A stretch of DNA of 54,706 nt from a virus (Duplodnaviria > Caudoviricetes): positions 1-54,706 of IMG/VR virus record IMGVR_UViG_3300011269_000005. The stretch is one strand, 5' to 3'. The translations under genes were made by a program, and so were the position numbers. The notes below the pieces were generated by a model. The model was not told the DNA's origin, made no database searches, and was given only the letters and a program-made list of their open reading frames with translations. Below, one piece after another: positions 124 through 17,532 of this stretch (the stretch's first letter is position 1; the number at the start of each line of letters is the position of its first letter).

Positions 124-1140
124 AGTATGGCTCGTGTCAGAGCATGTAGTGCCGTTCGAGATTGTGCACGTAAGTCCGCTTGCCGGAGACGCGCCGTTGA
201 CCCGAAGTGTGAAGGCGTCCGATTTGGCGTTGCCTTCGGCTGCAGTCGTATGACAGAACATCTTTGTGATGGAGGCTGCTTTACCGATAGGCAACTGTAC
301 GAGCGCTTCTGTCGTGGCGGCCGTCCCGAGACCGATGGCCGGTACGAAATCGGTCACTGCCGATACCGGTAAGGCGCTCGACCCGCCCGTCCACCAATGA
401 TCGCTTGGGCCTGCAACTCCCGTACTTCCCGTAGACCCAGTTGCCCCAGTAGCCCCTGCGGCTCCACTTGAACCTGTTGCGCCGCTCGCCCCGGATGCAC
501 CCGATGCTCCAGTCGCCGCGGCCGGCCCTGTTGGCCCAGTAGAGCCCGTGGCACCGGTTGCGCCATTGGAACCATTGGAGCCCGCCGCACCTGAAGCACC
601 ACTTGCTCCGGTAGCGGCAGCCGGACCTGTAGGGCCGCTTGGGCCTGTCGCTCCGGCAGCACCAGCCGCACCTGACGTTCCGCTTGCTCCAGATGCACCG
701 GAGGCACCTGTGGAACCGGCTGCTCCGGAGGCTCCGGAAGCGCCGGTTGCGGCTGCTGGCCCGGTAGGACCCGTGGGGCCAGCAGCTCCGCTACTTCCAG
801 AAGCGCCCGAGGAACCGGCGGATCCGGATGCTCCAGATGGACCTGTCATGCCCGTCGATCCTACGGGACCTGATATGCCCGTGGCTCCAGTGGCTCCCGT
901 GGGACCGGTAGTGCCAACAGAGCCTGCCGCGCCGGTACTACCTGATGAGCCCTCAGGTCCAGTCATACCTCTTTGGCCCGTCATTCCGGTAGCGCCAGTC
1001 GCGCCCGGAGGACCTTGACCGGGTATGTCCGCTGTGGAACTTTGCGGCCCCGCTACTCCCCAGGGCCATTGCACCGCCCATACTGGCGAACTGGACAATG
1101 CCAGTAATAGCGAGACCAGAAGAGCGCGAGAGGCTATCAT
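28..1140 (-). CDS. Collagen-like (Gly-X-Y) fibre protein with N-terminal signal peptide and Cys-containing C-terminal beta domain
   Basis: [22 protein letters not shown] signal-like leader, about 200 aa of GAT/GPT/GAS repeats, located directly after tail tubular protein A. Confidence 0.85.
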
Positions 1141-1769
1141 CCGGGAAGCCTCGATATGAGCCAGGAATGATCGGGCAAAGGATCCGGCGGCAATTCGATC
1201 GCGTTCGCCCGGATCGCGGCCATGATAGCGGCCTTGTATTCCCCTTGGGCGAGTTGGCGTTTATTGGCGGTCTGGATCAGATCCTCCGCCATCTCCATTG
1301 CGAGACGGCAGGCCAGCGCCATCACGAAACACGAGTCGAACTGGTTCGGGTCGGTCACCTTGCGCATGTAGCGGATGCCCAGCGGTGCCGGAAAGTTCGT
1401 CACGATGGTCTGGCCCTCTATGCGGTAGTCGCTGCCATCTACGACCAGGCCGAGCACTCTCGTACTTCCAGGCGAGATCACGTCCCCCATGCCGCCCGGC
1501 GAGAAGCGCCCGGCCTGGATCAATTTCAAATAGTCGTCAGGAAGCTGGTAGGCGTGGCTGTAACCGAAGGCTGGAACGTCCAAGAGGGCTGGGAGCAATA
1601 CCCGCTTCATCGCGAATGACCACTGGTGCGCACGAATCTCGTTGTCACGCTCCATTGCGTAGATGGCGTTCAGTGAGCGCGCCGACTTGACGTTATCGGT
1701 GAAGCTGAGAATCCGCTGCTGGCCCAGCTTGGTCAGCGCGAGGTTCGCGATGTCAACATCCGAGGGCAT
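1137..1769 (-). CDS. Tail tubular protein A / adaptor (T7 gp11-like)
   Basis: [51 protein letters not shown] motifs and gene position. Confidence 0.85.
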
Positions 1770-2190
1770 TGCATTGCTCCCGTTGGAGTCGGCTTCTGTC
1801 TAAGGCGCACTGTCTGCAACGACCTCGACCTTTTCTTGGGCCGCCCGCATAGCGATTCGCAGGAGTTAATTCGTGGCCTCGTTTGCAATGCGTAGGACAT
1901 TTGAGCGGCGAACGTCCGATATTCTCGGCGTGGGTAACCGGCTCGACATGATATGGACTGGCGCATCCGCGATTGCGGCAGAGATGATCCATCTCCTTGC
2001 CCTCGGGGATCGGTCCTACGAAATGCTCATAAGCGACGCGATGCGCTGTGTACATCCGGTCGCCAAGGCGGAAGATTCCGTAGCCGCAGGTGTCCCGATA
2101 GGCCATCCATTCCCAACAGCCATCCGGTGAGATAATTACCTTGTCGAGAAATCGCGCTAACTGTTCTTCTGTCATCTTGTCGCTAGGCAT
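1753..2190 (-). CDS. HNH homing endonuclease
   Basis: GCWEW, AHRVAYE, DHLCRNRGC..P.HVEPVTHAEN, THCKRGHE. Confidence 0.9.
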   Translation of the reverse strand: MPSDKMTEEQLARFLDKVIISPDGCWEWMAYRDTCGYGIFRLGDRMYTAHRVAYEHFVGPIPEGKEMDHLCRNRGCASPYHVEPVTHAENIGRSPLKCPTHCKRGHELTPANRYAGGPRKGRGRCRQCALDRSRLQREQCNALGC

Positions 2191-2339
2191 TCGCGCTGCT
2201 CCAGCGCGCGCAAGAATTGTCGCGCTAGAATGGCTAGATCGTCATCGGGATCGGCATTGACTCGATCTAGGATCTTATTCGCAAGCACAATAGCTGCGAC
2301 TTTTTCCTCAAGCTGCGTGGGCGGTTTGGATGATGCCAT

Positions 2340-2612
2340 CTAACCGATGAGCGTATAGCCTTCTTCAAAGGCTTTCGCTGGTGAGATCGATTTGTAGCCG
2401 TCCTCGTAAACAACGTAATAGTCGCCCGGCATCGGCATGTACCTGCTCACAACAGCCTTGGCTACGATTACGGGCGCGTAGCCGGGGTCCAAGATCGGCA
2501 GGATTACGTCTCCATTCGGCAGAACCTTGAGACCTTCGCCAATCTTGAGTGCCCAGACTTCCTTGTGACACAGATATTTGGGCATCTGGCGCGATGCATT
2601 ACTTTCGCTCAT
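2340..2612 (-). CDS. Small conserved phage protein (GDYYVVYEDGYKSISP motif), candidate anti-defence protein
   Basis: GGAG SD before ATG 2612. PKYLCHKEVWALKI...GDYYVVYEDGYKSISPAKAFEEGY. Confidence 0.7.
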   Translation of the reverse strand: MSESNASRQMPKYLCHKEVWALKIGEGLKVLPNGDVILPILDPGYAPVIVAKAVVSRYMPMPGDYYVVYEDGYKSISPAKAFEEGYTLIG

Positions 2613-2632
2613 GGAGTCTCCCATAGAATCTC

Positions 2633-3073
2633 CTACGGATTCCCCGGCTTGTGCAGACAATGGGCGAATTCGGCCGTCGAGACGTTCAGAGTCCCCGAAT
2701 CCGACACGCATTGCCAACCCAACGATGGATCGCCAGTGACCGCGTTATCGACCACGCCAGCGCCGTGCTGGATGATGAGGCCGTGAGTTGCGGTTGGTGT
2801 ATCGACTGGAGCAGCGAGTTGTGGCGGGAATGCAAAGCAGCGCAGATTGCCGCCTTCCGTCCAGCTCCACACCCAGTTGCACCGCGGCCCCGAGGCCGGA
2901 TCCATCACGATGACCGGCGTGCTCGTACCTACCGCCACGGGGGAGCCTGTGGTGCCCTTGGCGTTGATTGCCCAACCATCCGCGGTCAGAGTCGGCGATG
3001 CCGCAAATGCCCATGCTGCAGCAACGAACGATGCGACGAATAGAACGATTACCATCCGTAAGTGCCGCATCAA
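2633..3073 (-). CDS. Secreted beta-rich protein with signal peptide
   Basis: MMRHLRMVIVLFVASFVAAAWAFA leader and four Cys in the mature part. Confidence 0.7.
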   Translation of the reverse strand: MMRHLRMVIVLFVASFVAAAWAFAASPTLTADGWAINAKGTTGSPVAVGTSTPVIVMDPASGPRCNWVWSWTEGGNLRCFAFPPQLAAPVDTPTATHGLIIQHGAGVVDNAVTGDPSLGWQCVSDSGTLNVSTAEFAHCLHKPGNP

Positions 3074-3264
3074 TTCACCGCTGCGATCTTACCGGAGAAG
3101 TAATTGATGAGCTCTTCAAGGAAAGTGATCACCTGAATGTTTCCGCCGGTGAGCTTCGTTAGATCGACACGGAACTCCATATCGCCCGCGCCCGGTGCCG
3201 AAGTGCCCGCGGTAATCTGAAATTCGGTCTGGCCGACCGTTTTGCTCGCGCTGATAGATGCCAT
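3070..3264 (-). CDS. Small virion-module hypothetical protein
   Basis: GAGG SD, coupled to the next gene. Confidence 0.6.
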   Translation of the reverse strand: MASISASKTVGQTEFQITAGTSAPGAGDMEFRVDLTKLTGGNIQVITFLEELINYFSGKIAAVN

Positions 3265-3282
3265 CGCTTACCTCGGAAGGAA

Positions 3283-3298
3283 GGGGGCCGAAGCCCCC
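3283..3298 (-). terminator. GC hairpin with UUCG loop after the capsid/decoration genes (weak terminator or RNA-stabilising hairpin)
   Basis: Minus strand GGGGGC-TTCG-GCCCCC followed by TTCCTT. Confidence 0.5.
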
Positions 3299-3304
3299 AT
3301 CCGG

Positions 3305-3847
3305 CTACTGCATCTTGTAGGAAATTTCCAGCAAGATTGTCCCACCCGCGACGATGGCCGCTTCCGCGACAACCACCACGTCATATTCGGTCTGCGGATC
3401 TGCGGCGAGGCCAAGAACCTGCCAGATCATCTGGTCGGCGTTGAGCAGTGTGTAGAAATTGGTATTCGCGAATATCTGCTCCGCCTTCGTCGCGGCATTG
3501 GTCATCGCGACCGCATCGCCAAAGAACTGATCGGCGCCGGTCACGCCACCTGCCAACGTCAGCCATCCCGTGGTCGAGCTGAATCCGCCACGCAATGGAG
3601 TCTCCCAGAGGCCGATATCGACCGTCGTAGAGGCCGACAACGCGGCATTCGACAATAGACAAGAGACTACAACGGCATTTGCCGGAAGCGTGAAGAACCC
3701 ATACATCGAGGCAATTGAGTCCGCGGTCACGGTCAGCACGCGCGCCCGCTTCATGAAGTTGCGGCCTGCGGTGCGCAGATCGGACGGTAGCGGCGGTGAA
3801 GCGTCGCGATTGGTTATCACTCCTGATTTACGAATGAATACAGCCAT
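3305..3847 (-). CDS. Putative capsid decoration/cement protein
   Basis: Beta-rich 180 aa (LPANAVV, TVDIGL) just downstream of the major capsid gene, as in BPP-1-like phages. Confidence 0.65.
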   Translation of the reverse strand: MAVFIRKSGVITNRDASPPLPSDLRTAGRNFMKRARVLTVTADSIASMYGFFTLPANAVVVSCLLSNAALSASTTVDIGLWETPLRGGFSSTTGWLTLAGGVTGADQFFGDAVAMTNAATKAEQIFANTNFYTLLNADQMIWQVLGLAADPQTEYDVVVVAEAAIVAGGTILLEISYKMQ

Positions 3848-3882: not shown

Positions 3883-4119
3883 CTAAGGCAACGTGGTCCA
3901 TGCGCCCATCGTTGACGTTTGACGGCCTTGCACACCCGTCGTCTGCGCAGGCAGAGGCGGCGGGTCAGGGGCGACCACCACAAGGACGGCCGCCCCCAAA
4001 TCCGTGATAATCAAATCCAACTCGGCGAGTTGCGGACCTGTCAGGCTGGCCGTCAACACCAACGCAGCCAGATTCGCCCGAGCTGTCTTGAGCCGTGCGG
4101 AGAGCGTCTCCTGCGTCAC
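3883..4119 (-). CDS. Hypothetical protein
   Basis: ORF in the same-strand chain after the major capsid gene. Confidence 0.5.
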   Translation of the reverse strand: MTQETLSARLKTARANLAALVLTASLTGPQLAELDLIITDLGAAVLVVVAPDPPPLPAQTTGVQGRQTSTMGAWTTLP

Positions 4120-4267
4120 GGCTTTTTCACATCGGCCGGCTTCGCTATCGGAGCCGCCATTTTCTTCGGCGGGTCGTCCGCGCCCTTGGTGGCCGACTCC
4201 GGGCCAGCCACTCCGACACGATGGACGATTCGCTTTACTTCATCGGCCATTTGCTTACCTCACCTCT

Positions 4268-5173
4268 TTACTTGAGGCAGTTCACCAACATGACCTTCTT
4301 TTCCTGGAGTCGGCACGCACCGAAATACGCGTCGATGTAGATCTGCCACGGATGTCCGCGCAGGTCGAAGCGCTGCGTGATTTTCGTCTCGATGCCCTGC
4401 CAGGTGCCGAAGTGCATCCCACCGCCGGCGTACACCGGAACCTTCCGATAGGCCAGCGTCGAATCGAGCCCGAGTTGCTCGCTATGGATGAACTGGATAC
4501 CCAGGAAGCGTGTGATCTTGCCTTCCGCGAGTACCGGCGCATCTGGCTGGTTGAAGTCGCGGTTGATGACCTGCGCCTCAGCCAGCAGATTGTCGAGCTG
4601 AGTCGCCGATGCGACGCACCAGAGCTTCTCGACATCCAAATCGACTTCGTTCTGCAGGAGCAATCGCCGGGCTTCACGGAGTTTGGCGACGGTCAGGCCA
4701 GTATCGGCCGACGCCCCGAAGTTCGACGCGATGATATTGCCCGACGGGAACGCGGTCGTATCATTGCCGAGCTGGCCGGTCTTGCTCGTCTCATCGAATG
4801 CCCGAATGCACTCAGCGTCGTGCTGCCGATTCATGGCCGCCTGCAATGCCTCCGCGTAACTGGAGCGCGGGTCGGCCATCGTCTGGATTTCGTCCCACTT
4901 ATCAAAGGGGACTGCCCCATCGAACGGCTTCGGCGTGACCCACCGATCGTCATGCGGCACATCCATAAACGTGATCGGCTCCAACCGCACCGTCCGCTGC
5001 TGGACGCCCAAAATGCCGATCTGTTTTACGGCCTGGGCCTGCTGTGACCCGGTATGGACGCCCTGTTTGAAACTGCTTACTATACGCTCATAGCGCTGTT
5101 GAGCAAGCAATTCGAAGATTTGGGTAAACTTGTACTCAAAAAGTGCCACTACGCTCTGATCAATAGTAGCCAT
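4268..5173 (-). CDS. Major capsid protein (BPP-1 Bbp17-like)
   Basis: LAQQR, D..D.IQTMADPRSSYA, AAMNRQHD, GLTVAKLREARRLL, DFN...LAEGKITRFLGIQF, GACRLQEKKV. Confidence 0.9.
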   Translation of the reverse strand: MATIDQSVVALFEYKFTQIFELLAQQRYERIVSSFKQGVHTGSQQAQAVKQIGILGVQQRTVRLEPITFMDVPHDDRWVTPKPFDGAVPFDKWDEIQTMADPRSSYAEALQAAMNRQHDAECIRAFDETSKTGQLGNDTTAFPSGNIIASNFGASADTGLTVAKLREARRLLLQNEVDLDVEKLWCVASATQLDNLLAEAQVINRDFNQPDAPVLAEGKITRFLGIQFIHSEQLGLDSTLAYRKVPVYAGGGMHFGTWQGIETKITQRFDLRGHPWQIYIDAYFGACRLQEKKVMLVNCLK

Positions 5174-5175
5174 CG

Positions 5176-5718
5176 CTACTTAACCTCTTTAAGTATCACT
5201 TGAGTCAAGTGAGACTCAAGGTAAGAGGCTACTTTGCGAGCGATCTCAACGGAATCTCTCAGATGGCCAAGCGCAATATTGCAGTGGCGACAAAGCAGTG
5301 CACGCACCTTCCCCGTTGCGTGATCGTGATCGACGTGACGAGTTACTTCGTCGATGGAGTCGGCACAAATCGCGCACTGGAAAGATTGCGCAGCGAGCAT
5401 CGCCTGAAATTCAGCGAAGCTCATCCCATATTTGTGTCTCAGATCTCTGTCGTGGAAGTAGGAAGGATCCTGCGCACGTTTAGCGGCGTTCCATTGCCGA
5501 TTACGCACGCGTCCCTGTTCACGTAGCTCTTCGGGCCCTTCGCGGATTTTCTGGCGTTGAAGACAGGCAGCATTCTTCTGCCGATACGGGAACAGTTTAT
5601 ACTGCTCGCGCCGTTTCGCCTTGCGTCGTTCGTACCAAGATGGATCAGACTCCGTCTTGCGTAGTTCCCACGCTTTATAGGCTTCGGCTTTTTTGGCTTT
5701 GAGTTCTTCCGGAGTCAT
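5176..5718 (-). CDS. Endonuclease VII-like homing endonuclease
   Basis: KYGMS, QSFQCAIC, HVDHDHATGKVRALLCRHCNIALG. Confidence 0.9.
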   Translation of the reverse strand: MTPEELKAKKAEAYKAWELRKTESDPSWYERRKAKRREQYKLFPYRQKNAACLQRQKIREGPEELREQGRVRNRQWNAAKRAQDPSYFHDRDLRHKYGMSFAEFQAMLAAQSFQCAICADSIDEVTRHVDHDHATGKVRALLCRHCNIALGHLRDSVEIARKVASYLESHLTQVILKEVK

Positions 5719-5823
5719 CCGGTGCAGCCTCTAGTTAATCCCTCGATCAACGTCGACGCGGCCTACCCGGATAACCGGAACCTTGTCTAGCTCAAATAAC
5801 GCTTGAGCATACTGGCGGCAGTC

Positions 5824-7515
5824 TCATCCTGCTTCAGCGGACCTCCGTAGGCTACCCGCTACCGCGAGCATTAGCACAAACACTGTGCCAAGGGAAATAG
5901 CCTTACCAATGCGGCGGATCGGCGTTGGATGGGAAAGATAGTCGCGCGTCGCGGCATCTTCTGGCTCGTACTCGCCCCTAGTCGTGGTTTCCCAGCCGCT
6001 CGCAGCGATGTTCGCCGGCGTGAAGTAGGCATCATTCAGATTGATGTAACCCTTCGGCTGCGCATGGCTGAGATTCACCGCAATCAGGATCGCGATGGTC
6101 AGGATTATCAGAATGTGCCCATGTTTCACGTGGAACATTGCCTCGAAGGCCCACAGCGAGAGTAACGGCATAAAGAGCGCGGGAAGTGCGAGCGTACGCC
6201 AAGGGAACTGAAAGTATTGAAGGATCGAGATGTGATCCCAGACGGGCGTGCTGTAACCGGTCGCCAGGAAGGCGCCGATTATTGATGCGGCGGCGAACGC
6301 ACAAACAAGTGATATCCGTTCGGAATCGGAATCTCCTCGCCACAATCGGGACAGTGCCAGCCGAGCAGGACCTTGCCGTTCTCGGCTATTACTGTCACTG
6401 GGATCGCCTGGGGATGCTCGCAGTTGATCATGAAAGGCATAGATGACTCTCCTTAAGGAGGCGGCGGCAGCACAGGCTGCCAATGGGTGGGCTTGATTCC
6501 GAAGACGCCACGGGCTGTCCAGCAAGATAGATTGGCTGCCCATCTCATCACTACAAGTTGGTCTACCCATAGATAATTGCCGGGGGCGGGGACGTAGCCA
6601 ATTACCCAAGTTCCATCGTGTGGCGCGGTCTCTATGGTTTGCCACTCCATAAGCAAAGAATAGACCCGTTAGGGCCAACGCGATATGCGGCAGGCCGAGC
6701 GCATAGTCCATGCCGAGCGGCGAATAGCCGAATTGCCAGTGGCCCCAAACGAGTTGATTCAGCCAGATGAAATGGCGATGGTAATCGAAGAAGTCGGTGC
6801 GCAGCAATTCGGGCCGGACATACTGCATCTCGAAGAGGGCGGGAAGCCAGAAATAAGCGCTGAGACCTACAGCACCGGCCAGCGCCCTGGGGGAGCGCCA
6901 ACCGGTGCCTCGGCTGGAGGAGATTGCAATGAATGTTGGAAACATTAGCAGAGCGATGGCATTGTGCGCAAGTGGCAGCAGCGCGAGCGCGAAGGCCGCG
7001 AAATACCACGGCCACGCGAGCAGGACATAAAGGCCAAGCGGCGCGACGCAGAGGGCGGCCATTTCCGCCATACGGACGCTCACGTATAAGTCAATAGATT
7101 GATAGGGTGCCCACAACCAGGCGACGGAGGCTCCGAGTGATGCCCACTGAGAGAATCCCAAGTGCCGCCCTATTCCGTAAACTGACGCGGCGCCTACGGC
7201 AACTAGAAGTGCAAGCGCGAGCTGTAAGGAGACGGCTAGCCCGCATCCGAGCTTCCAAAACGGGAGTGCCACCGCGTAAATGAGCGGTGGACAGAATTCA
7301 AATAGTGGCTGGCCGCGACCGCTCGATAGATCTGGCGCCCATAAAGGCGGGAAGCCGGAGCGGCTGAATTCAACTAGCCGAGCGGGGTAGGCCATCGAGT
7401 CATGTCCGTCAATCAGAAGTGGCTGGAATAAAGGGAGTGTGAAGGTCAGATATGCCACGCTCGCGATTAAGGCTAGAATTAGCTTGTCGCGGTTATGTAA
7501 TACTTGATAACCCAA
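5824..7515 (-). CDS. Polytopic membrane GT-C-type glycosyltransferase (6-pyruvoyl-tetrahydropterin synthase-related membrane family) with an in-frame insertion of about 115 aa
   Basis: DGHD, P.WAPDL..G.G.PLF.F.PPL.Y, APY...DLYV, GLSAYFWLPAL.E, LQYFQFPWR, GEYEP motifs and many transmembrane segments. Confidence 0.8.
   Translation of the reverse strand: MGYQVLHNRDKLILALIASVAYLTFTLPLFQPLLIDGHDSMAYPARLVEFSRSGFPPLWAPDLSSGRGQPLFEFCPPLIYAVALPFWKLGCGLAVSLQLALALLVAVGAASVYGIGRHLGFSQWASLGASVAWLWAPYQSIDLYVSVRMAEMAALCVAPLGLYVLLAWPWYFAAFALALLPLAHNAIALLMFPTFIAISSSRGTGWRSPRALAGAVGLSAYFWLPALFEMQYVRPELLRTDFFDYHRHFIWLNQLVWGHWQFGYSPLGMDYALGLPHIALALTGLFFAYGVANHRDRATRWNLGNWLRPRPRQLSMGRPTCSDEMGSQSILLDSPWRLRNQAHPLAACAAAASLRRVIYAFHDQLRASPGDPSDSNSRERQGPARLALSRLWRGDSDSERISLVCAFAAASIIGAFLATGYSTPVWDHISILQYFQFPWRTLALPALFMPLLSLWAFEAMFHVKHGHILIILTIAILIAVNLSHAQPKGYINLNDAYFTPANIAASGWETTTRGEYEPEDAATRDYLSHPTPIRRIGKAISLGTVFVLMLAVAGSLRRSAEAG
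6279..6440 (-). CDS. 53-aa Zn-ribbon-like protein nested in the GT-C gene (not in the ORF track)
   Basis: TAAGGAG SD, then MPFMINCEHPQAIPVTVIAENGKVLLGWHCPDCGEEIPIPNGYHLFVRSPPHQ*. Confidence 0.65.
   Translation of the reverse strand: MPFMINCEHPQAIPVTVIAENGKVLLGWHCPDCGEEIPIPNGYHLFVRSPPHQ
6453..6650 (-). CDS. DUF551-like small phage protein nested in the +1 frame of the GT-C gene
   Basis: MEWQTIETAPHDGT...PTHWQPVLPPPP matches the WQPIETAPKDGT...PTHWMPLP.PP family signature. Confidence 0.75.
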   Translation of the reverse strand: MEWQTIETAPHDGTWVIGYVPAPGNYLWVDQLVVMRWAANLSCWTARGVFGIKPTHWQPVLPPPP

Positions 7516-7537
7516 GTGGGTTCGGTTATCTTGTTTC

Positions 7538-7943
7538 TGTGGAAAATCGCAATCCGATTGACGAAGCGTTCAAGATATTACATGCGGACATGGACGCAAC
7601 ATGCCCCGCAGCGCTCATTGAGCGTGGCCGCCGGATGTGGCGCGTACTTGGCTTAACTAACACAGATCTGGCAGCTATAGAAACTTGCATCGGTGCTCCT
7701 AAGCTAGAGCAACTCCTTTCGCTGGCCTCTTGTGATGCCCCCATGGTACAAGCCGTGACACGGCTCGCGCGTGAATTTAGTCATATGAGCTTGCGTGCAT
7801 TCAGTCGTAGTTGGCGTACAAGCAAAAAGGGCGGACTGGTACGTAGCCCGCGTAAGGCGGCTGCCGCTCGTGCTAATGGAAAGCTCGGAGGACGACCTGC
7901 CTTATCCAAGACCCGTAAGCGGAAGCCGCGCGCGCGTGAATAG
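7538..7943 (+). CDS. Hypothetical basic protein with KAAAARANGKLGGRP motif
   Basis: This motif is common in small phage DNA-binding-like proteins. The start codon is uncertain. Confidence 0.55.
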
Positions 7944-7980
7944 AAGATACGCGGCGCAGCCTGTACTGAGTAGGACAACT

Positions 7981-8292
7981 TTATTTCCAACACGGTACAG
8001 AAACGTTCCGCATTTCCTCGTGCATCGGCCATGTCCATCCATGGCGCGCGGCCCATCCTTCGGTGCGCGGACCCGGCACGTTAGCCCAATTATAGGTCTC
8101 GCACATTGCTACGTCGCCGTGCCGCACATAGCTGGTGATTGTCGCCCATTCTTCAAGACTGTGATACCAAGGATAGCCGTAAATTGGACGATCGCAGACC
8201 CAAGCCCCTGACTGATCGGGGCCGCTCCCCATCCACGTCCCGAGTGTGAATGAGAAGGCTAAGACAATGATGATAACCCTCGTGATCTCCAT
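7981..8292 (-). CDS. Small membrane-anchored or exported protein
   Basis: MEITRVIIIVLAFSFTLG hydrophobic N-terminus, coupled to the upstream gene. Confidence 0.55.
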   Translation of the reverse strand: MEITRVIIIVLAFSFTLGTWMGSGPDQSGAWVCDRPIYGYPWYHSLEEWATITSYVRHGDVAMCETYNWANVPGPRTEGWAARHGWTWPMHEEMRNVSVPCWK

Positions 8293-8293
8293 A

Positions 8294-9022
8294 CTAGCGA
8301 ACCGAACGTACACGCTGATCTACCGGCTTGCGGCGGCGGGCTCGTCGTGAATGCGGCGTCTCAATTAATGCTCGGCCTGTCCTATTATGTGCGAATCCAA
8401 GATATTGAGCCGGGAATACCTGCTGCCAACCATGCCCTGGATCCCAAGTCGCCTGATAGGCTCCAGGTAGCATCGCCGCCGGATTCCACGGCCCACTCAG
8501 TTTGCGCATCAGATCCCAGGGACCTTTACTTCCCGGCACAAAATACGCTGGCAATACGAAGTTGCTGAGCATCATCCCGTGCTTGATCTGCCCTTGAGTG
8601 TCGTCCTCGACTGGGTCGCATGCCTCGTAGGCCAGAAACAGCGCGTTCGGCAGATCCGACCATTGTGCGGTCTGGTCGATATATGGGTCGCCGAGCATTT
8701 CGAGAATCTCATGGCTGATGGTCACGGAGGGCTTCATCCCCGCATCAAGGGTCGTCTTGGCGAAGGCGAAACCGATAGGTCCGCCGCCTGAACCGGTCTC
8801 ATGAAAACCTGCTGCTCCGGCAACTGTGGAATCGTCCGCTATAACAAATTGCCATGACGCGGGATTCATCTTCTGGTCTTTCGAGACGAATTTAAATCCG
8901 ATGAGTTCCGTATCCCAATACCTTGCAAAATCTTGATTTGCTTGGGCCGCAACGGCGCTCATGACTGCTGCGACTTGCGCATCAGTCATCACGGTGGATA
9001 TGTTCTGGTACTGGATAATCAT
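8294..9022 (-). CDS. Putative zinc metallopeptidase-like protein
   Basis: AAGFHE, SVTISHEILEMLGDP (HExxE), YEACDPVE, LSNFVLP. Confidence 0.6.
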   Translation of the reverse strand: MIIQYQNISTVMTDAQVAAVMSAVAAQANQDFARYWDTELIGFKFVSKDQKMNPASWQFVIADDSTVAGAAGFHETGSGGGPIGFAFAKTTLDAGMKPSVTISHEILEMLGDPYIDQTAQWSDLPNALFLAYEACDPVEDDTQGQIKHGMMLSNFVLPAYFVPGSKGPWDLMRKLSGPWNPAAMLPGAYQATWDPGHGWQQVFPAQYLGFAHNRTGRALIETPHSRRARRRKPVDQRVRSVR

Positions 9023-9286
9023 TCAGTTCCCTCCGCCGCCTATGTAACATCCAGGCAAGACGATCAACGCGGGCACTGGCGTAGCGCCTGGGCTGGGACT
9101 CGCTACTGGAGTCGGTTGCGCTGCAAGAAGGGCGCTGCGAGCCTGTTGACATTCTCCTGGATTCAAGAACCCGCCTGGCGGTCCCTCGAAATAAACCCCG
9201 TCCACGTTGTTCAGGGGATTCTCGACGATAAAGAAGTATCCAGCCAGGATGATTCCGACTAAGAGTTTTGCCCAGTGCCGTTTCAT
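9023..9286 (-). CDS. Small exported Cys-containing protein
   Basis: ATGA overlap with the GT stop, MKRHWAKLLVGIILA leader. Confidence 0.55.
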   Translation of the reverse strand: MKRHWAKLLVGIILAGYFFIVENPLNNVDGVYFEGPPGGFLNPGECQQARSALLAAQPTPVASPSPGATPVPALIVLPGCYIGGGGN

Positions 9287-10365
9287 CGCATCTCCATCAG
9301 CGCGGTCGGCCATGCTCGCTTAGACTCCTCATCGAAGCGCTGTAGACCGTGGTAATTGTGATTGTGCAGGTGATCTTCCTGTCGCCGGCCCGACCAGGCA
9401 ATATTCATCTTGCTGATGATATCGACTGTGCTGGTGGGATCGGCCTGAAACATTCTGGCCACCCATGAGACTTCAGGCGATACAACGACGGGCACATTTG
9501 CAATCACGAAATCGGCGCTAACGATGTTGAAAGTCTCGCTGAAGGAGACCTGCATTCCAAGGTCCATCAGCCGGACTAAGGACATGAATTCGCTACGGTC
9601 CAGCCAGGGATGACCGACGAGCGTGTGCGGCGGTTTTACGTTCGCGAATAATGCGCGCAGATTCTTCAGTACCTGGGCTCCGTTCATCTCGATTCGATCC
9701 GAATTGATGTGGAATCGGATCGTGAAGCCCCGTGCGTTCGCCCAATCGATTGCGGCACAGGCCTGAGTGAGTTGGTTCTTCATAGGCCGGATCGCCCCGA
9801 AGCATCCAATGTCCACTACATCATCCGCCGGCAATCCCTTACGCGGTTCCAGCGGCGCGAGCGGGTAATAGTTCGGCGTGTAGGGGATATGAACACCAAA
9901 GATCCGTCGAAAATCGGTTTGTGCCCGCAAGGAATTAGCCGATACCGTGACATGGGCCAATTTCGAGTACGCGAATAGCCATTCCATCGCATTTCCCTCG
10001 TTCGCAAGGAAGGGCAATTCACTGTGCATGCGGACATTCCATCGGATATCAGGGTGCAATCGAGTCAGTAGGGCTAGCTTGGCCGGTCGGACCCATAGGG
10101 CCTCCAAGATAGCGTGTGTCGGTCTGGATGCCGTAACGGCGCGGTCTATCTCGTTGTCATCCTGTATACGCTCGAATGCCGCCTCGATGCCGAGGCTCTG
10201 GAGCATATCGGTAACGTAGTTGACCGAATTTCGCAGCCCGGTCCAATTGGTATTAGGCCAGCCTCGCGGCTGCGGGTGTGGTGGATGCGGAGGATGAGGG
10301 TGGTGGTGCGGGTCGTAGTAATCGCCACGTTTCTTGAGCAGAAACAGAACCTTAACAGGCTTCAA
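9283..10365 (-). CDS. GT-B (GT4-like) glycosyltransferase
   Basis: IGCFGAIRPMKNQL, DLGMQVSFSETFNIVSADF...VPVVVS (E-x7 motif region). Confidence 0.8.
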   Translation of the reverse strand: MKPVKVLFLLKKRGDYYDPHHHPHPPHPPHPQPRGWPNTNWTGLRNSVNYVTDMLQSLGIEAAFERIQDDNEIDRAVTASRPTHAILEALWVRPAKLALLTRLHPDIRWNVRMHSELPFLANEGNAMEWLFAYSKLAHVTVSANSLRAQTDFRRIFGVHIPYTPNYYPLAPLEPRKGLPADDVVDIGCFGAIRPMKNQLTQACAAIDWANARGFTIRFHINSDRIEMNGAQVLKNLRALFANVKPPHTLVGHPWLDRSEFMSLVRLMDLGMQVSFSETFNIVSADFVIANVPVVVSPEVSWVARMFQADPTSTVDIISKMNIAWSGRRQEDHLHNHNYHGLQRFDEESKRAWPTALMEMR

Positions 10366-10371
10366 CGGATT

Positions 10372-15772: not shown

Positions 15773-17532
15773 TATTCTCCGACTCCAGGTTGCGGTTGCG
15801 GCGAATTCAGCACCGTCGAATGCGCTTGGGCCAGGTCCTTAGCTGCTGCCGCTGCCTGCGGTGCTGCCTGCACCATCATCTGCGCGTTCTGCGCCTGCTG
15901 CTTGTTCGCCTGCAATTCCGCCATCTGCTCGGGCGAATAAAGTAGCTTGGCCGGTACGCCATTAATCTCGGCAAGTTCACGGGCGGTCTTCTCCGGGTCG
16001 AAGATGTCGAAGACTTCAGGATGACCGGCTTCGGCGTAGGGCGCTAGCTGCTGAAAGGTCTGGAGTATCCCCACACCATCTTGAGCGCGCTGGAGACGGT
16101 TCAGCGGGGACGAATACTCAATCTTGATGATCCCACCGCGCTGGCGAAGCTTGTCGGGCATTGGTCCTAGCGAGTCGAGTTGTCCAGCGTGCGCCAAGAC
16201 ATCAAGCTCTCGATTGATGCAGTTGCCTAGAAATTCAGATTGCTGACGACCCATCCCGGGAGTGAGGAGGATGCCCCGCTCTTGAGCCAAGAGCAGGGCT
16301 TGCGTAGCAGTCATGTCGGGGTGCTCGAGCAGCATCTCGAACATATTCCCGTAGAACGCCGCCTTGATACTCTTGCGCCGCACCTCCATCTTCTCTTCGG
16401 CAATGTCTACCTTCGCGCCGGAGACGAAGGGATAGGCGAGTTGCTTGCCATCGTCGCTAACCATTCCGTAGTTAAGTGCCCCGGGTCGCAAGGAGAATGC
16501 TTGACCGACCTCTGGGAGAAGTACAGGAGGATTGGCAAGAAGCTGCGCAGCGTTGATGTCGGTCCTAGACATCTCATTGAGCATCTTGATGTCAGAGAGA
16601 GAAACAAATGCTGGCCCTCTCCCGTATACTTCACGCGGTCCCACCATAAATCTGCTTGTTGCATAAGGCATCACCCGATATCCCGATTCGCAGACCAGCT
16701 TGATCGGGTTCATGCAGAGGTAGAAAGACTCGTAGGCCATACCCTGTACGTCGGTCCGACCGAACGCGGGATTCTTGCGCGGCCGGACCACATGCAGCCA
16801 TTCGAAGTCGCGATGCATCTGGGAGGGGTTGGCGAGTGCCGCCTGGACACCATCCGGCAACGCTTTCACCCCCCACATGTCGGCCGCCTGAGTTGCCGAG
16901 AATGGAAACTTACGAAACACCCGATCTATAATCCCGACGTGGTTCTCGGCGAAGTAGAGGTCCTGCAGGGGGATAGCGCGATAGCGGAGGTTCTCGCCCA
17001 TCGCCTCGTCGATGAACATCGAGCCAGTGCCGAACGCGGTCAGCCCGAGCATATTCTCGTGTGCTTGGCTGGCAAAGTTTGCCTTTGGCGAATAGCGCGC
17101 GGCGAATAGGATGTCGTTTAAATCCTCGAGATAGGTGCGAACCTCGCGGTCATCCTTTAGGTCTGGATCGACTGGCGCTAGCATATGCCAACGCTGGGTG
17201 CGCGGAAACAACATCGACTCGAATAGGGCAGCGCAGTTCTCGAGGGCCTGCGGTGCAGTCGATTCGAAGATGTATTCCGTCCTACGTTCGGCCTGGGGAA
17301 CGCCAAGGACGCTGCGCTGAAAGACGTTCTGATGCGGCAACACTCGGCGGGCGATGTCGGCCCAATAAGGTTCCCAGTTGTAGCGGATGCCTTGAAGAGC
17401 CTGGAATTCGCGGATTAGTTCTTGCGCTGTAGCATCGCTGGTGGAGTTGACCTTGCCTAGCTCCCAGTCTTGAACCGGCGCGCGCCAGAAACGCGGGTCT
17501 TTGCGAGGTCGGGTACTGAATGCTGCGGCCAT
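15772..17532 (-). CDS. Portal protein (head-tail connector, T7 gp8/Bbp21-like)
   Basis: FGTGSMFIDE, IDRVFRKF, YGRGPA, MTATQA, IEYSSPLNRLQRA. Confidence 0.93.
   Translation of the reverse strand: MAAAFSTRPRKDPRFWRAPVQDWELGKVNSTSDATAQELIREFQALQGIRYNWEPYWADIARRVLPHQNVFQRSVLGVPQAERRTEYIFESTAPQALENCAALFESMLFPRTQRWHMLAPVDPDLKDDREVRTYLEDLNDILFAARYSPKANFASQAHENMLGLTAFGTGSMFIDEAMGENLRYRAIPLQDLYFAENHVGIIDRVFRKFPFSATQAADMWGVKALPDGVQAALANPSQMHRDFEWLHVVRPRKNPAFGRTDVQGMAYESFYLCMNPIKLVCESGYRVMPYATSRFMVGPREVYGRGPAFVSLSDIKMLNEMSRTDINAAQLLANPPVLLPEVGQAFSLRPGALNYGMVSDDGKQLAYPFVSGAKVDIAEEKMEVRRKSIKAAFYGNMFEMLLEHPDMTATQALLLAQERGILLTPGMGRQQSEFLGNCINRELDVLAHAGQLDSLGPMPDKLRQRGGIIKIEYSSPLNRLQRAQDGVGILQTFQQLAPYAEAGHPEVFDIFDPEKTARELAEINGVPAKLLYSPEQMAELQANKQQAQNAQMMVQAAPQAAAAAKDLAQAHSTVLNSPQPQPGVGE

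Follow-up and report, generated by a model that had tools for sequence, protein, structure and literature searches.

How can a phage gene for a membrane enzyme hold two complete small genes in another frame without its own frame being broken? The question is raised by a locus in the window, the whole stretch of 54,706 nt that was analysed (IMG/VR record IMGVR_UViG_3300011269_000005), which, taken as a whole, is probably best explained as the complete genome of a soil phage with a functional glycosyltransferase gene of the GT-C type. The enclosing GT-C open reading frame occupies 5824..7515 on the minus strand (563 codons); its true start is uncertain because the longest ORF begins at TTG. Wholly within host codons 289–412, on the same strand and in the +1 frame, lie n1 (6453..6650, within an ORF of 6453..6656), which encodes a DUF551-like protein of 65 aa from a family-consistent ATG at 6650, and n2 (6279..6440), which encodes a Cys/His zinc-ribbon-like protein of 53 aa. 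Over 6279–6656 the third frame contains ten stop codons, the nested frame only the two that belong to n1 and n2 and the host frame none, as the original prediction had described. Standard gene calling returned only the outer ORF, truncated, and missed both n1 and n2.

The enclosing gene encodes, according to its AF2 model (pLDDT 83, pTM 0.83), a multi-pass membrane protein of GT-C fold; transfer of a sugar from a lipid-linked donor is only predicted. Foldseek places AftD as the best match to the model (E 1.3e-4), followed by STT3, AglB, ArnT, EmbB and PMT. No Pfam model recognizes the ORF at E ≤ 1, and its homologues (E down to 1e-119) carry PF10131 (PTPS_related) and/or PF09586 (YfhO). The conserved acidic motif of the loop that follows TM1 is D-G-H-D (residues 36–39), in which D39, presumably the catalytic residue as in other GT-C enzymes, is nearly invariant among the 35 sequences of alignment A6. 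Both halves of the gene are under purifying selection. The dN/dS ratio is 0.06–0.13 upstream of the insert and 0.10–0.24 downstream for all six pairs, and substitutions concentrate at host codon position 3 (53:37:124, for example). The five GT-C proteins that bear an insert form one clade with support of 100/100, star-like inside. A blastn search with 5700–7600 and tblastn searches with GT-C, n1 and n2 gave no match among 50,697 phage records, and a scan of genome contigs for GT-C gave five distant cellular homologues, at most 48% identical, none of which falls in the insert-bearing clade.

The nested genes lie where the enzyme departs from its cellular homologues. Host-frame sequence without a counterpart in these extends over ~6304..6636 on the minus strand (~host residues 294–404, alignment A1), so that the loop at this site is ~105–111 residues long in the window against ~8 in the cellular homologues, close to the ~115 aa of non-family sequence first noted. 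The location is thus in a loop that cellular GT-C proteins lack. The AF2 pLDDT falls in the insert only, to means of 32–52 over host residues 311–390, and the loop is probably disordered; we infer that it lies on the cytoplasmic side of the membrane. A fourth relative, P0003, which is known as a protein only, has a similar loop.

Judged by its homologues, n1 is an intact and real member of a DUF551-like family, whose other members are mostly free-standing phage genes. A word-indexed search with n1 gave no candidate, and the family came up later by exhaustive phmmer comparison with 1.84 billion representatives. This gave 207 matches at E ≤ 1e-3, aligning over their full length to proteins of ~65–75 aa, the best with an E value of 1.2e-14 and 55% identity. 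The Pfam model of DUF551 (PF04448) scores n1 below threshold (11.5 bits, E 0.58, cut-off 22). It is matched by 15 of 20 aligned sequences (n1 and 19 relatives; best E 1.8e-8), and the n1 of the window is among the five without a match at E ≤ 0.01. The DUF551 likeness that had been seen originally is borne out. All of the family motifs are present and the full length is kept: W3, I6, A9, P10, D12 and P65 are invariant in the alignment, and Q4, E7, T8, G13, P54, H56, W57, P59, L61 and P62 are nearly so. Among viral loci of relatives, 65 of the 67 analysed are not covered by a longer ORF in another frame. No Shine-Dalgarno motif is found upstream of n1. A peptide-pattern scan of viral contigs with n1 gave three candidate stretches, none confirmed, and when the complete genome of the window and the 6-kb record behind the relative L001 were searched for further copies, the known one alone turned up.

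Purifying selection acts on the inner gene n2 in the frame that it occupies, the dNN/dNS being 0.41 (bootstrap 0.24–0.68) in the zinc-ribbon core. Orthologues are nested in the +1 frame in all three distinct relatives for which there is DNA, namely L001/L004 (51 aa), L002 (61 aa) and L003 (46 aa), with start, ribosome-binding site and stop alike. C7, H9 and the run G-W-H-C-P-D-C-G-E-E are invariant in all four variants. The two knuckles, C7-x-H9 and C30-P-D-C33, are putative metal ligands and are held invariant despite indels between them. The ribosome-binding site TAAGGAG that had been ascribed to n2 is indeed present at 6455–6449 (AAGGAG at 6454–6449), 8 nt before the ATG at 6440, and the site is kept in the relatives; TAGGAGGA stands ~7 nt ahead of the ATG in all of them, giving AAGGAG or TAGGAGGA at 7–8 nt in four of four variants. 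The last eight codons and the stop of n2 overlap conserved GT-C sequence. All zinc-ribbon models fall below their thresholds (Zn_ribbon_HMPTM, 17.1 bits against 27; zf-dskA_traR, 16.7 against 24.9), and phrog_9089 is matched weakly and repeatedly by all four variants (E 4e-4 to 8e-3). The AF2 model of n2 is weak (pLDDT 62.7) and has three strands. A profile search yielded a single protein among 47 candidates, identical to the nested ORF of L001, and no free-standing homologue; candidates were found through shared words of five residues only, so that distant relatives of a 53-aa protein may have escaped. None of 17 candidate stretches from a peptide-pattern scan of viral contigs with n2 was confirmed. 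The proteins in the Atlas that look like n2 (score 0.94) are small and hypothetical, which we take as a lead only. The idea that n2 is a diverged DUF551 protein was dropped, the hhalign probability against the DUF551-like set being 0.8%. An E-T near the N-terminus and an L-P-P near the C-terminus occur in both n1 and n2, and were put down to coincidence or microhomology.

The DNA alignments separate the two genes. A 216-nt in-frame insertion at 6454..6669 (minus strand), consisting of a 19-nt leader and n1 as far as the second stop-codon base, is specific to the window and absent from L001/L004, L002 and L003. The blastn break points are at 6670/6453, and the flanks are otherwise collinear. 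A junction lacking n1 is also found on a 151-nt contig from soil run X10, net 216 nt shorter. The original prediction saw a single two-gene cassette, and this cannot be maintained: n2 occurs in three of three relatives with DNA and is common to the whole phage clade, and n1, found in the window only among the five insert-bearing GT-C sequences, is by the pattern of these alignments the product of a separate event. By parsimony only, gain of n1 is favoured over its repeated loss.

A segment that is single in the relatives is present as an imperfect duplicate around n1. Copy A (6645..6672, minus strand) is the end of a transmembrane helix, behind which n1 now follows, and matches the single copy in L003 at 18 of 28 positions (manual count, alignment A7). 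Copy B (6429..6456, minus strand) carries the stop of n1 and the ribosome-binding site and start of n2, and includes an exact run of 15 nt common to L001 and L003. By virtue of the duplication both the helix end and the start signals of n2 survive. At the other end of n2, where the sequence re-enters conserved GT-C (6282..6303, minus strand), there is 73% likeness to the 3′ end of n1 (6453–6474), a GC-rich microhomology. No terminal inverted repeats flank 6454–6669. The host-frame G-V-A-N that follows the helix end resembles R-x-A-N of the cellular homologues; we treated this as coincidence, because G-V-A-N is dictated by the conserved M-x-W-Q start of n1. Other window-specific insertions occur in the neighbourhood. 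A weak hairpin is present at the left junction (6676–6663), from which nothing is drawn, and a scan for promoters and terminators counted about as many as expected by chance (2 against 1.8 and 4 against 3.0). Of the 12 runs listed with this DNA none is on record as RNA, which speaks neither for nor against expression.

The host frame through the insert could be open by chance or by selection. Codon shuffling and synonymous resampling give the probability of a stop-free host frame, given the nested proteins, as 0.13–0.14 for n1 and 0.10–0.18 for n2. In 17 long genes of the same phage 2.4% of 124-codon windows are open in that frame, and that the length of the insert is divisible by three contributes another factor of 1/3. 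Each of the other three n2 variants, which have diverged, has an open host frame as well (P = 0.07, 0.11 and 0.21). The chance per variant is thus modest, 7–21%, and the probabilities are not simply multipliable because the four n2 variants share ancestry. The host-frame dN/dS within the insert is 0.85–1.34, i.e. about 1, with dNN/dSN of 1.34 (bootstrap 0.67–3.2) in the zinc-ribbon core; these estimates, and that for n2, come from four sequences and ~35 codons, with pairs that are not independent. The codon log-likelihood ratio (LLR) of the nested frame is +0.15 in n1 and +0.19 in n2, compared with +0.23 (SD 0.09) as the mean of true frames, and that of the host frame is −0.12 and −0.23, like an off-frame; in the GT-C cores the relation is reversed. 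The amino acid sequence of the host in the insert is therefore unconstrained, and selection appears to act on the frame solely to hold it open. The proposal that both frames are under selection thus holds for n2, and for the host frame within the insert it reduces to the absence of stops.

It is quite improbable that the insert in effect breaks the GT-C gene, or splits it, and that the host frame is open by luck. The odds for any single variant (~2% over 124 codons or 7–21% per nested gene) are not forbidding, and spurious ORFs of some length are frequent in this genome of 56.5% G+C; against this, purifying selection on the downstream half (0.10–0.24) is found in six of six pairs, that half has no start signal of its own and its first in-frame Met past the insert falls within a membrane helix, and four of four diverged variants keep the host frame in phase and free of stops, as is the case again after the separate n1 event. 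With strong constraint on both halves and an insert free of stops in every variant, the gene is most likely read through. Removal of the insert from the mRNA, or its bypassing, had been raised at the outset as skipping or splicing, and phage genes in general can carry introns and inteins. Nothing over the insert was found in an Rfam search of 5000–8500 at E ≤ 1 (a single chance miRNA match lies elsewhere), so there is no intron match, and the host ORF is without any Pfam domain and hence without an intein or endonuclease domain. Moreover the insert holds the coding sequences and signals of two proteins, and an intron would not require every variant to keep the host frame open and in phase; we find an intron, an intein or translational bypassing hardly credible. 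The same can be said of an assembly chimera in which n1 was joined in by the assembler, despite its being unique to the genome of the window among the relatives. The inserted length is exactly 216 nt with edges in otherwise collinear sequence, and contigs from soil runs X1 and X5 (3184 nt) and X9 (2381 nt) span the insert with no differences at depths of 12–20, these being per-run contigs of three studies that may include the source sample of the window.

Two further explanations accept the enclosing gene as it stands and question the inner ones, and we consider each of them possible but rather doubtful. According to one, n2 originated in place, when a GT-C loop that had expanded was overprinted, and was not inserted ready-made. 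Its start and ribosome-binding site lie within codons that belonged to the ancestral helix end, the final eight codons and the stop lie within conserved GT-C sequence, no free-standing homologue was found either by the profile search or by tblastn of the 50,697 phage records, and it is unrelated to the DUF551-like set by hhalign. Yet in the overlap it is the n2 frame that has genome-like codon statistics and constraint, and the host frame looks like the newcomer, which by the criteria quoted in PMC8227390 marks n2 as the older frame. Furthermore all four variants match phrog_9089 weakly, and a search by 5-residue words could miss distant relatives. According to the other explanation n1, and less likely n2, is silent cargo, an intact ORF that was inserted recently and is untranslated, so that only the open host frame matters to the phage. 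The lack of a Shine-Dalgarno motif and the occurrence of n1 in one genome only would fit with that; but n1 keeps every family-conserved residue and its full length, and most genes of this phage have weak or absent Shine-Dalgarno motifs. For n2 both the purifying selection and the conservation of the ribosome-binding site contradict such silence.

We therefore consider it likely that a functional GT-C gene carries two genuine small +1-frame genes in the stretch that encodes its loop, n1 having come later than n2. In this history n2 would already have been nested in the common ancestor of the phage GT-C clade, and a 216-nt piece carrying n1 would then have entered in the lineage of the window, exactly between the codons of the helix end and the ribosome-binding site of n2. 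Ribosomes starting at the GT-C start would traverse both nested genes and make a full-length enzyme whose ~110-residue loop is a by-product of the other frame, and n2 would be made by internal initiation at AAGGAG-N8-ATG. Because the family of n1 is a large one whose genes are free-standing, n1 predates the overlap, so that for n1 at least the enclosed gene is the older one and the enclosing frame the newcomer.

The closest known arrangement is that of the lambda spanins, where Rz1 lies in the +1 frame of Rz. There too a small gene on the same strand is contained wholly within a larger gene for a phage membrane protein and has its own start signals, as n2 has and n1 has not; and embedded spanins of this type, like n1 and n2, are overlooked by gene callers. 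PMC6139136 lists 182 embedded systems among 677 phages, and argues that embedded architectures may derive from once-separate genes, the enclosing protein having diverged in the part encoded by the overlap. The present locus differs in having two unrelated embedded genes with different times of arrival, in the position of the overlap in an internal loop between membrane helices and not in a soluble or terminal domain, and in the origin of n1 from a widespread family of free-standing genes. Spanin partners are also functionally linked, whereas nothing here ties the DUF551-like or the zinc-ribbon protein to the glycosyltransferase.

Viral overprinting likewise involves same-strand internal +1 overlaps in which one frame is constrained and the other free (PMC8227390). 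In the usual case the enclosed ORF is new and without homologues; here the enclosed n1 is old, with 207 homologues, and the enclosing loop is new. Rickettsia palindromic elements and other MITEs in protein-coding genes are also foreign DNA in frame that adds a tolerated peptide (PMC10969869). What was inserted here is instead a gene for a protein, present once and read in a different frame; it is no repeated palindromic element and is flanked by no terminal inverted repeats. Morons are small accessory genes added to mosaic regions of phage genomes, where they sit between genes. The gain of n1 resembles this, and its family is common in early and accessory regions of phages, but n1 lies inside a gene without breaking the GT-C frame.

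Embedded phage genes are already known and are usually explained as born in place, and n1 clearly predates its overlap. The locus is thus a dated example, at the level of sequence, of an overlap formed by insertion without destruction of the recipient gene, and it makes concrete the question of whether ~110 residues of 'other-frame' sequence can be accommodated in a loop of a membrane enzyme. The missed inner genes bear on counts of small phage genes. A more general reading, which we think unlikely, is that the loop-coding stretch acts as a parking place for ready-made accessory genes inserted out of frame. A foreign gene would be read in the other frame as a disordered cytoplasmic linker, so that the enzyme survives and an older gene, through its alternate frame, supplies the outer one with de novo protein sequence, a kind of 'reverse overprinting'. 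In this reading the nested proteins might even work jointly with the glycosyltransferase, in the manner of embedded spanin partners. With insertion at least twice at one site this could be a recurrent route for adding genes; if so, gene gain of this kind would recur in compact phage genomes and would be systematically missed by gene callers.

The virus record is complete (54,706 bases with direct terminal repeats; estimated completeness 100%), with a G+C content of 56.5%. Downstream of the GT-C ORF (5824..7515, minus strand, 563 codons) come an endonuclease VII gene (5176..5718; PF02945, E 5.4e-21) and a major capsid gene (4268..5173; PF19821, E 5.8e-62). Within the GT-C ORF, in its +1 frame on the same strand, are two further ORFs. 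The DUF551-like n1 extends over 6453..6656 at its longest, and the start consistent with its family (ATG at 6650) gives a protein of 65 aa. The zinc-ribbon-like n2 (6279..6440, 53 aa) is preceded by TAAGGAG at 6455-6449, the TAA of which is the stop codon of n1. Across 6279-6656 the host (GT-C) frame contains no stop, the nested frame only its own two and the third frame ten; these counts, the ORF coordinates and the TAAGGAG bear out the original prediction that two complete ORFs are nested in an unbroken GT-C frame. Elsewhere long ORFs run antisense to, or overlap, clear genes, at 4004-5047 (+), 16240-17109 (+) and other places, for example one of 347 aa opposite the capsid gene. These are probably spurious in a G+C-rich genome, and illustrate how easily long frames stay open here.

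No Pfam model matches the GT-C ORF at E<=1. Scoring of 8000 candidates gave 57 homologues at E<=1e-3, many of which contain PF10131 and/or PF09586. An AF2 model based on a 35-sequence alignment (pLDDT 83.1, pTM 0.83) has as its closest structures GT-C enzymes (AftD, STT3, AglB, ArnT, EmbB and PMT), and the enclosing gene is predicted from this model to be a GT-C glycosyltransferase that carries an added loop. Alignment of homologues delimits the non-family stretch noted originally: ~105-111 residues in the window against ~8 in cellular homologues (R-x-R-R-L-D and neighbours). The loop is the sole long low-confidence part of the model (10-residue block means 32-52, residues 311-390), flanked by confident helices at 275-306 and 397-417. 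We infer that it is cytoplasmic from the Arg-rich character of the ancestral loop and a backward count of helices starting at the C-terminus, which is Arg-rich too. A public protein record of this GT-C (P0001, 415 aa) begins at Met149, and therefore lacks the first 148 codons, including the conserved D-G-H-D loop; under its gene call the protein collection contains neither nested ORF of the window.

Scans with GT-C found four relatives, one viral contig (L001) and three metagenome contigs (L002, L003 and L004; 3 confirmed from 197 candidate stretches). Over the GT-C gene L004 and L001 do not differ. All four are collinear with the window at ~70-87% nucleotide identity, and each has a counterpart of n2 (51, 61 or 46 aa) in the +1 frame of its GT-C. 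Every counterpart starts M-P-F, with TAGGAGGA ~7 nt 5′ of the start, and ends at the same stop position inside a conserved GT-C segment. C7, H9 and G-W-H-C-P-D-C-G-E-E are invariant, with in-frame indels between them. As to the identity of n2, phrog_9089 matches all four distinct n2 variants, the window's among them (E 4e-4 to 8e-3, a weak family assignment); zinc-ribbon Pfam models fall below threshold, the searches for homologues returned no free-standing ones, and the AF2 model (pLDDT 62.7, three strands) defines the fold weakly. Throughout a phage clade n2 is kept as a nested gene, and its own frame is under selection.

Selection over the zinc-ribbon core of n2 was estimated by an in-house OLGenie-style count. 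Substitutions non-synonymous in both frames occur less often there than those non-synonymous in the host frame only (dNN/dNS 0.41, bootstrap 0.24-0.68), and the host-frame dNN/dSN is 1.34 (0.67-3.2). The pattern is reversed in the last eight codons of n2, which lie over conserved GT-C sequence (host 0.46, n2 1.25). Codon-frame log-likelihoods, with 17 long genes from this phage as training set, agree with this count. The nested frame scores +0.15 in n1 and +0.19 in n2 (true-frame mean +0.23, SD 0.09), and the host frame -0.12 and -0.23 respectively (off-frame mean ~-0.30), with +0.11 and +0.18 in the GT-C cores. For GT-C, pairwise comparison of the four sequences gives a dN/dS of 0.06-0.13 before the insert and 0.10-0.24 after it, and substitutions in the cores cluster at host codon position 3 (e.g. 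53:37:124), suggesting that GT-C is functional on both sides of the insert. The proposal that both frames are under selection thus holds for the n2 core and the GT-C flanks, but not at the amino-acid level for the GT-C frame inside the insert, where the same pairwise comparison gives 0.85-1.34.

The Pfam DUF551 model scores n1 at 11.5 bits, below its cut-off of 22, and a word-indexed search gave no relatives. When 1.84 billion representatives were searched exhaustively with phmmer, 207 matches had E<=1e-3, among them four with E<=1e-10, the best with E 1.2e-14 and 55% identity; most span the full length of proteins of ~65-75 aa. In an alignment with 19 relatives n1 keeps all the invariant and nearly invariant residues of the family; PF04448 matches 15 of the 20 sequences (best E 1.8e-8), the window's n1 being outside the 15. 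Taken together the alignments indicate that n1 is genuine and intact and belongs to a large family. Relatives of n1 were found at 69 loci in a scan of viral contigs; the gene was located by motif in 67 of these, the other two being left out. In 65 of the 67 no longer ORF in another frame of the same strand covers it, and in the remaining two the covering ORFs are of 117 and 220 aa. The family is therefore normally free-standing and its nested position in the window exceptional.

The two genes had been proposed to arrive as one cassette. The genes 3′ of n1 relatives are varied and none is n2-like, which argues against a pre-formed n1-n2 cassette. In a GT-C tree built with the insert columns removed, the five insert-bearing GT-Cs (the window, L001, L002, L003 and the protein-only record P0003) form one clade on a long branch with 100/100 support and star-like inner branching. 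Among these n1 is present in the window only, as a 216-nt segment (6454-6669, from DNA alignments and blastn) comprising a 19-nt leader and n1 through the second base of its stop. Two separate events, and not one cassette, are thus indicated by the distribution of the genes. One event suffices for a gain of n1 in the window lineage, and a loss would take at least two; this does not apply if the window branches first, which the star-like tree permits. The helix-end segment carrying the ribosome-binding site and ATG of n2 is single in the relatives and occurs twice in the window, before n1 (6672-6645, matching the single copy of L003 at 18/28 positions by manual count) and before n2 (6456-6429, with a 15-nt exact run found in the relatives too). 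Over 22 nt the 3′ ends of the two nested genes are 73% similar. Insertion may have occurred by microhomology-mediated illegitimate recombination. A weak 5-bp hairpin with a T-rich run (6663-6676, minus strand) coincides with the left boundary of the inserted n1 segment; such sites occur at chance number in the region.

Misassembly is opposed by single-run contigs from soil metagenomes (three runs, three studies; the runs may include the source sample), which span the insert junctions with no differences (3184 nt in X1 and X5; 2381 nt in X9, covering 5800-7240). A fourth run, X10, holds fragments of the window's own type and also a 151-nt contig, at low depth, from a variant that lacks n1 (window 6446-6686), in which 239 nt are skipped and 23 other letters present, a net 216 nt shorter. 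The two forms may co-occur in one habitat. The suggestion that the insert is skipped or spliced found no backing in an Rfam scan of the region, which gave no family match, or in a domain search of the host frame, which gave no intein or other domain. The GT-C half downstream of the insert lacks its own start signal, and therefore continuous translation through the insert would be the simplest reading. The frame could also be open by chance. When the nested protein was fixed and synonymous codons were redrawn from phage usage, the probability of a stop-free host frame was 0.13 for n1 and 0.18, 0.07, 0.11 and 0.21 for the four n2 variants, which are related so that the values cannot be multiplied; codon shuffles gave similar values, and 2.4% of 124-codon windows in real genes are open in the corresponding frame. 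Together with the in-phase lengths these values make it likelier that selection keeps the GT-C frame unbroken. The observation itself stands, with the nested genes and open frame, and its interpretation is supported in part, the single cassette and splicing finding no support.

The region around GT-C is generally mosaic, and the relatives differ there by kilobase-scale pieces. Within the 5′ end of its GT-C gene the window carries ~506 bases (7416-7921) that L002 lacks, a piece occupied by an opposite-strand ORF of 163 aa (7452..7943, +). A 46-aa ORF (7902..8042, minus strand) matches the N-terminus of the L002/P0002 GT-C, and therefore the older GT-C start and first helix survive as an upstream remnant; the present N-terminus resembles those of L003 and P0003. 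The endonuclease VII gene (5176-5718, minus strand), next to GT-C on its downstream side, is absent from L001 and L004, where 38 nt correspond to window 5231-5714, and looks like a mobile free-standing endonuclease gene. L001 has ~2.4 kb (950-3384) between GT-C and the capsid module that is missing in the window, and L003 has ~200 nt (337-540) in place of ~2.9 kb (7467-10370).

A narrow literature search found no case of a gene with family members elsewhere being inserted, out of frame, into an enzyme gene that stays intact. The closest architecture is that of embedded spanin genes, and in the study describing them (PMC6139136) embedded and overlapped arrangements are considered to derive from once-separate genes. 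Rickettsia palindromic elements are likewise tolerated in-frame insertions, but are multi-copy repeats (PMC10969869). Most overlaps are viewed in the overlapping-gene literature (PMC8227390) as one ancestral and one de novo frame, the ancestral being that with wider phylogenetic distribution and genome-like codon usage. Since n1 has both, on those criteria n1 is the ancestral frame and the GT-C loop the new reading.
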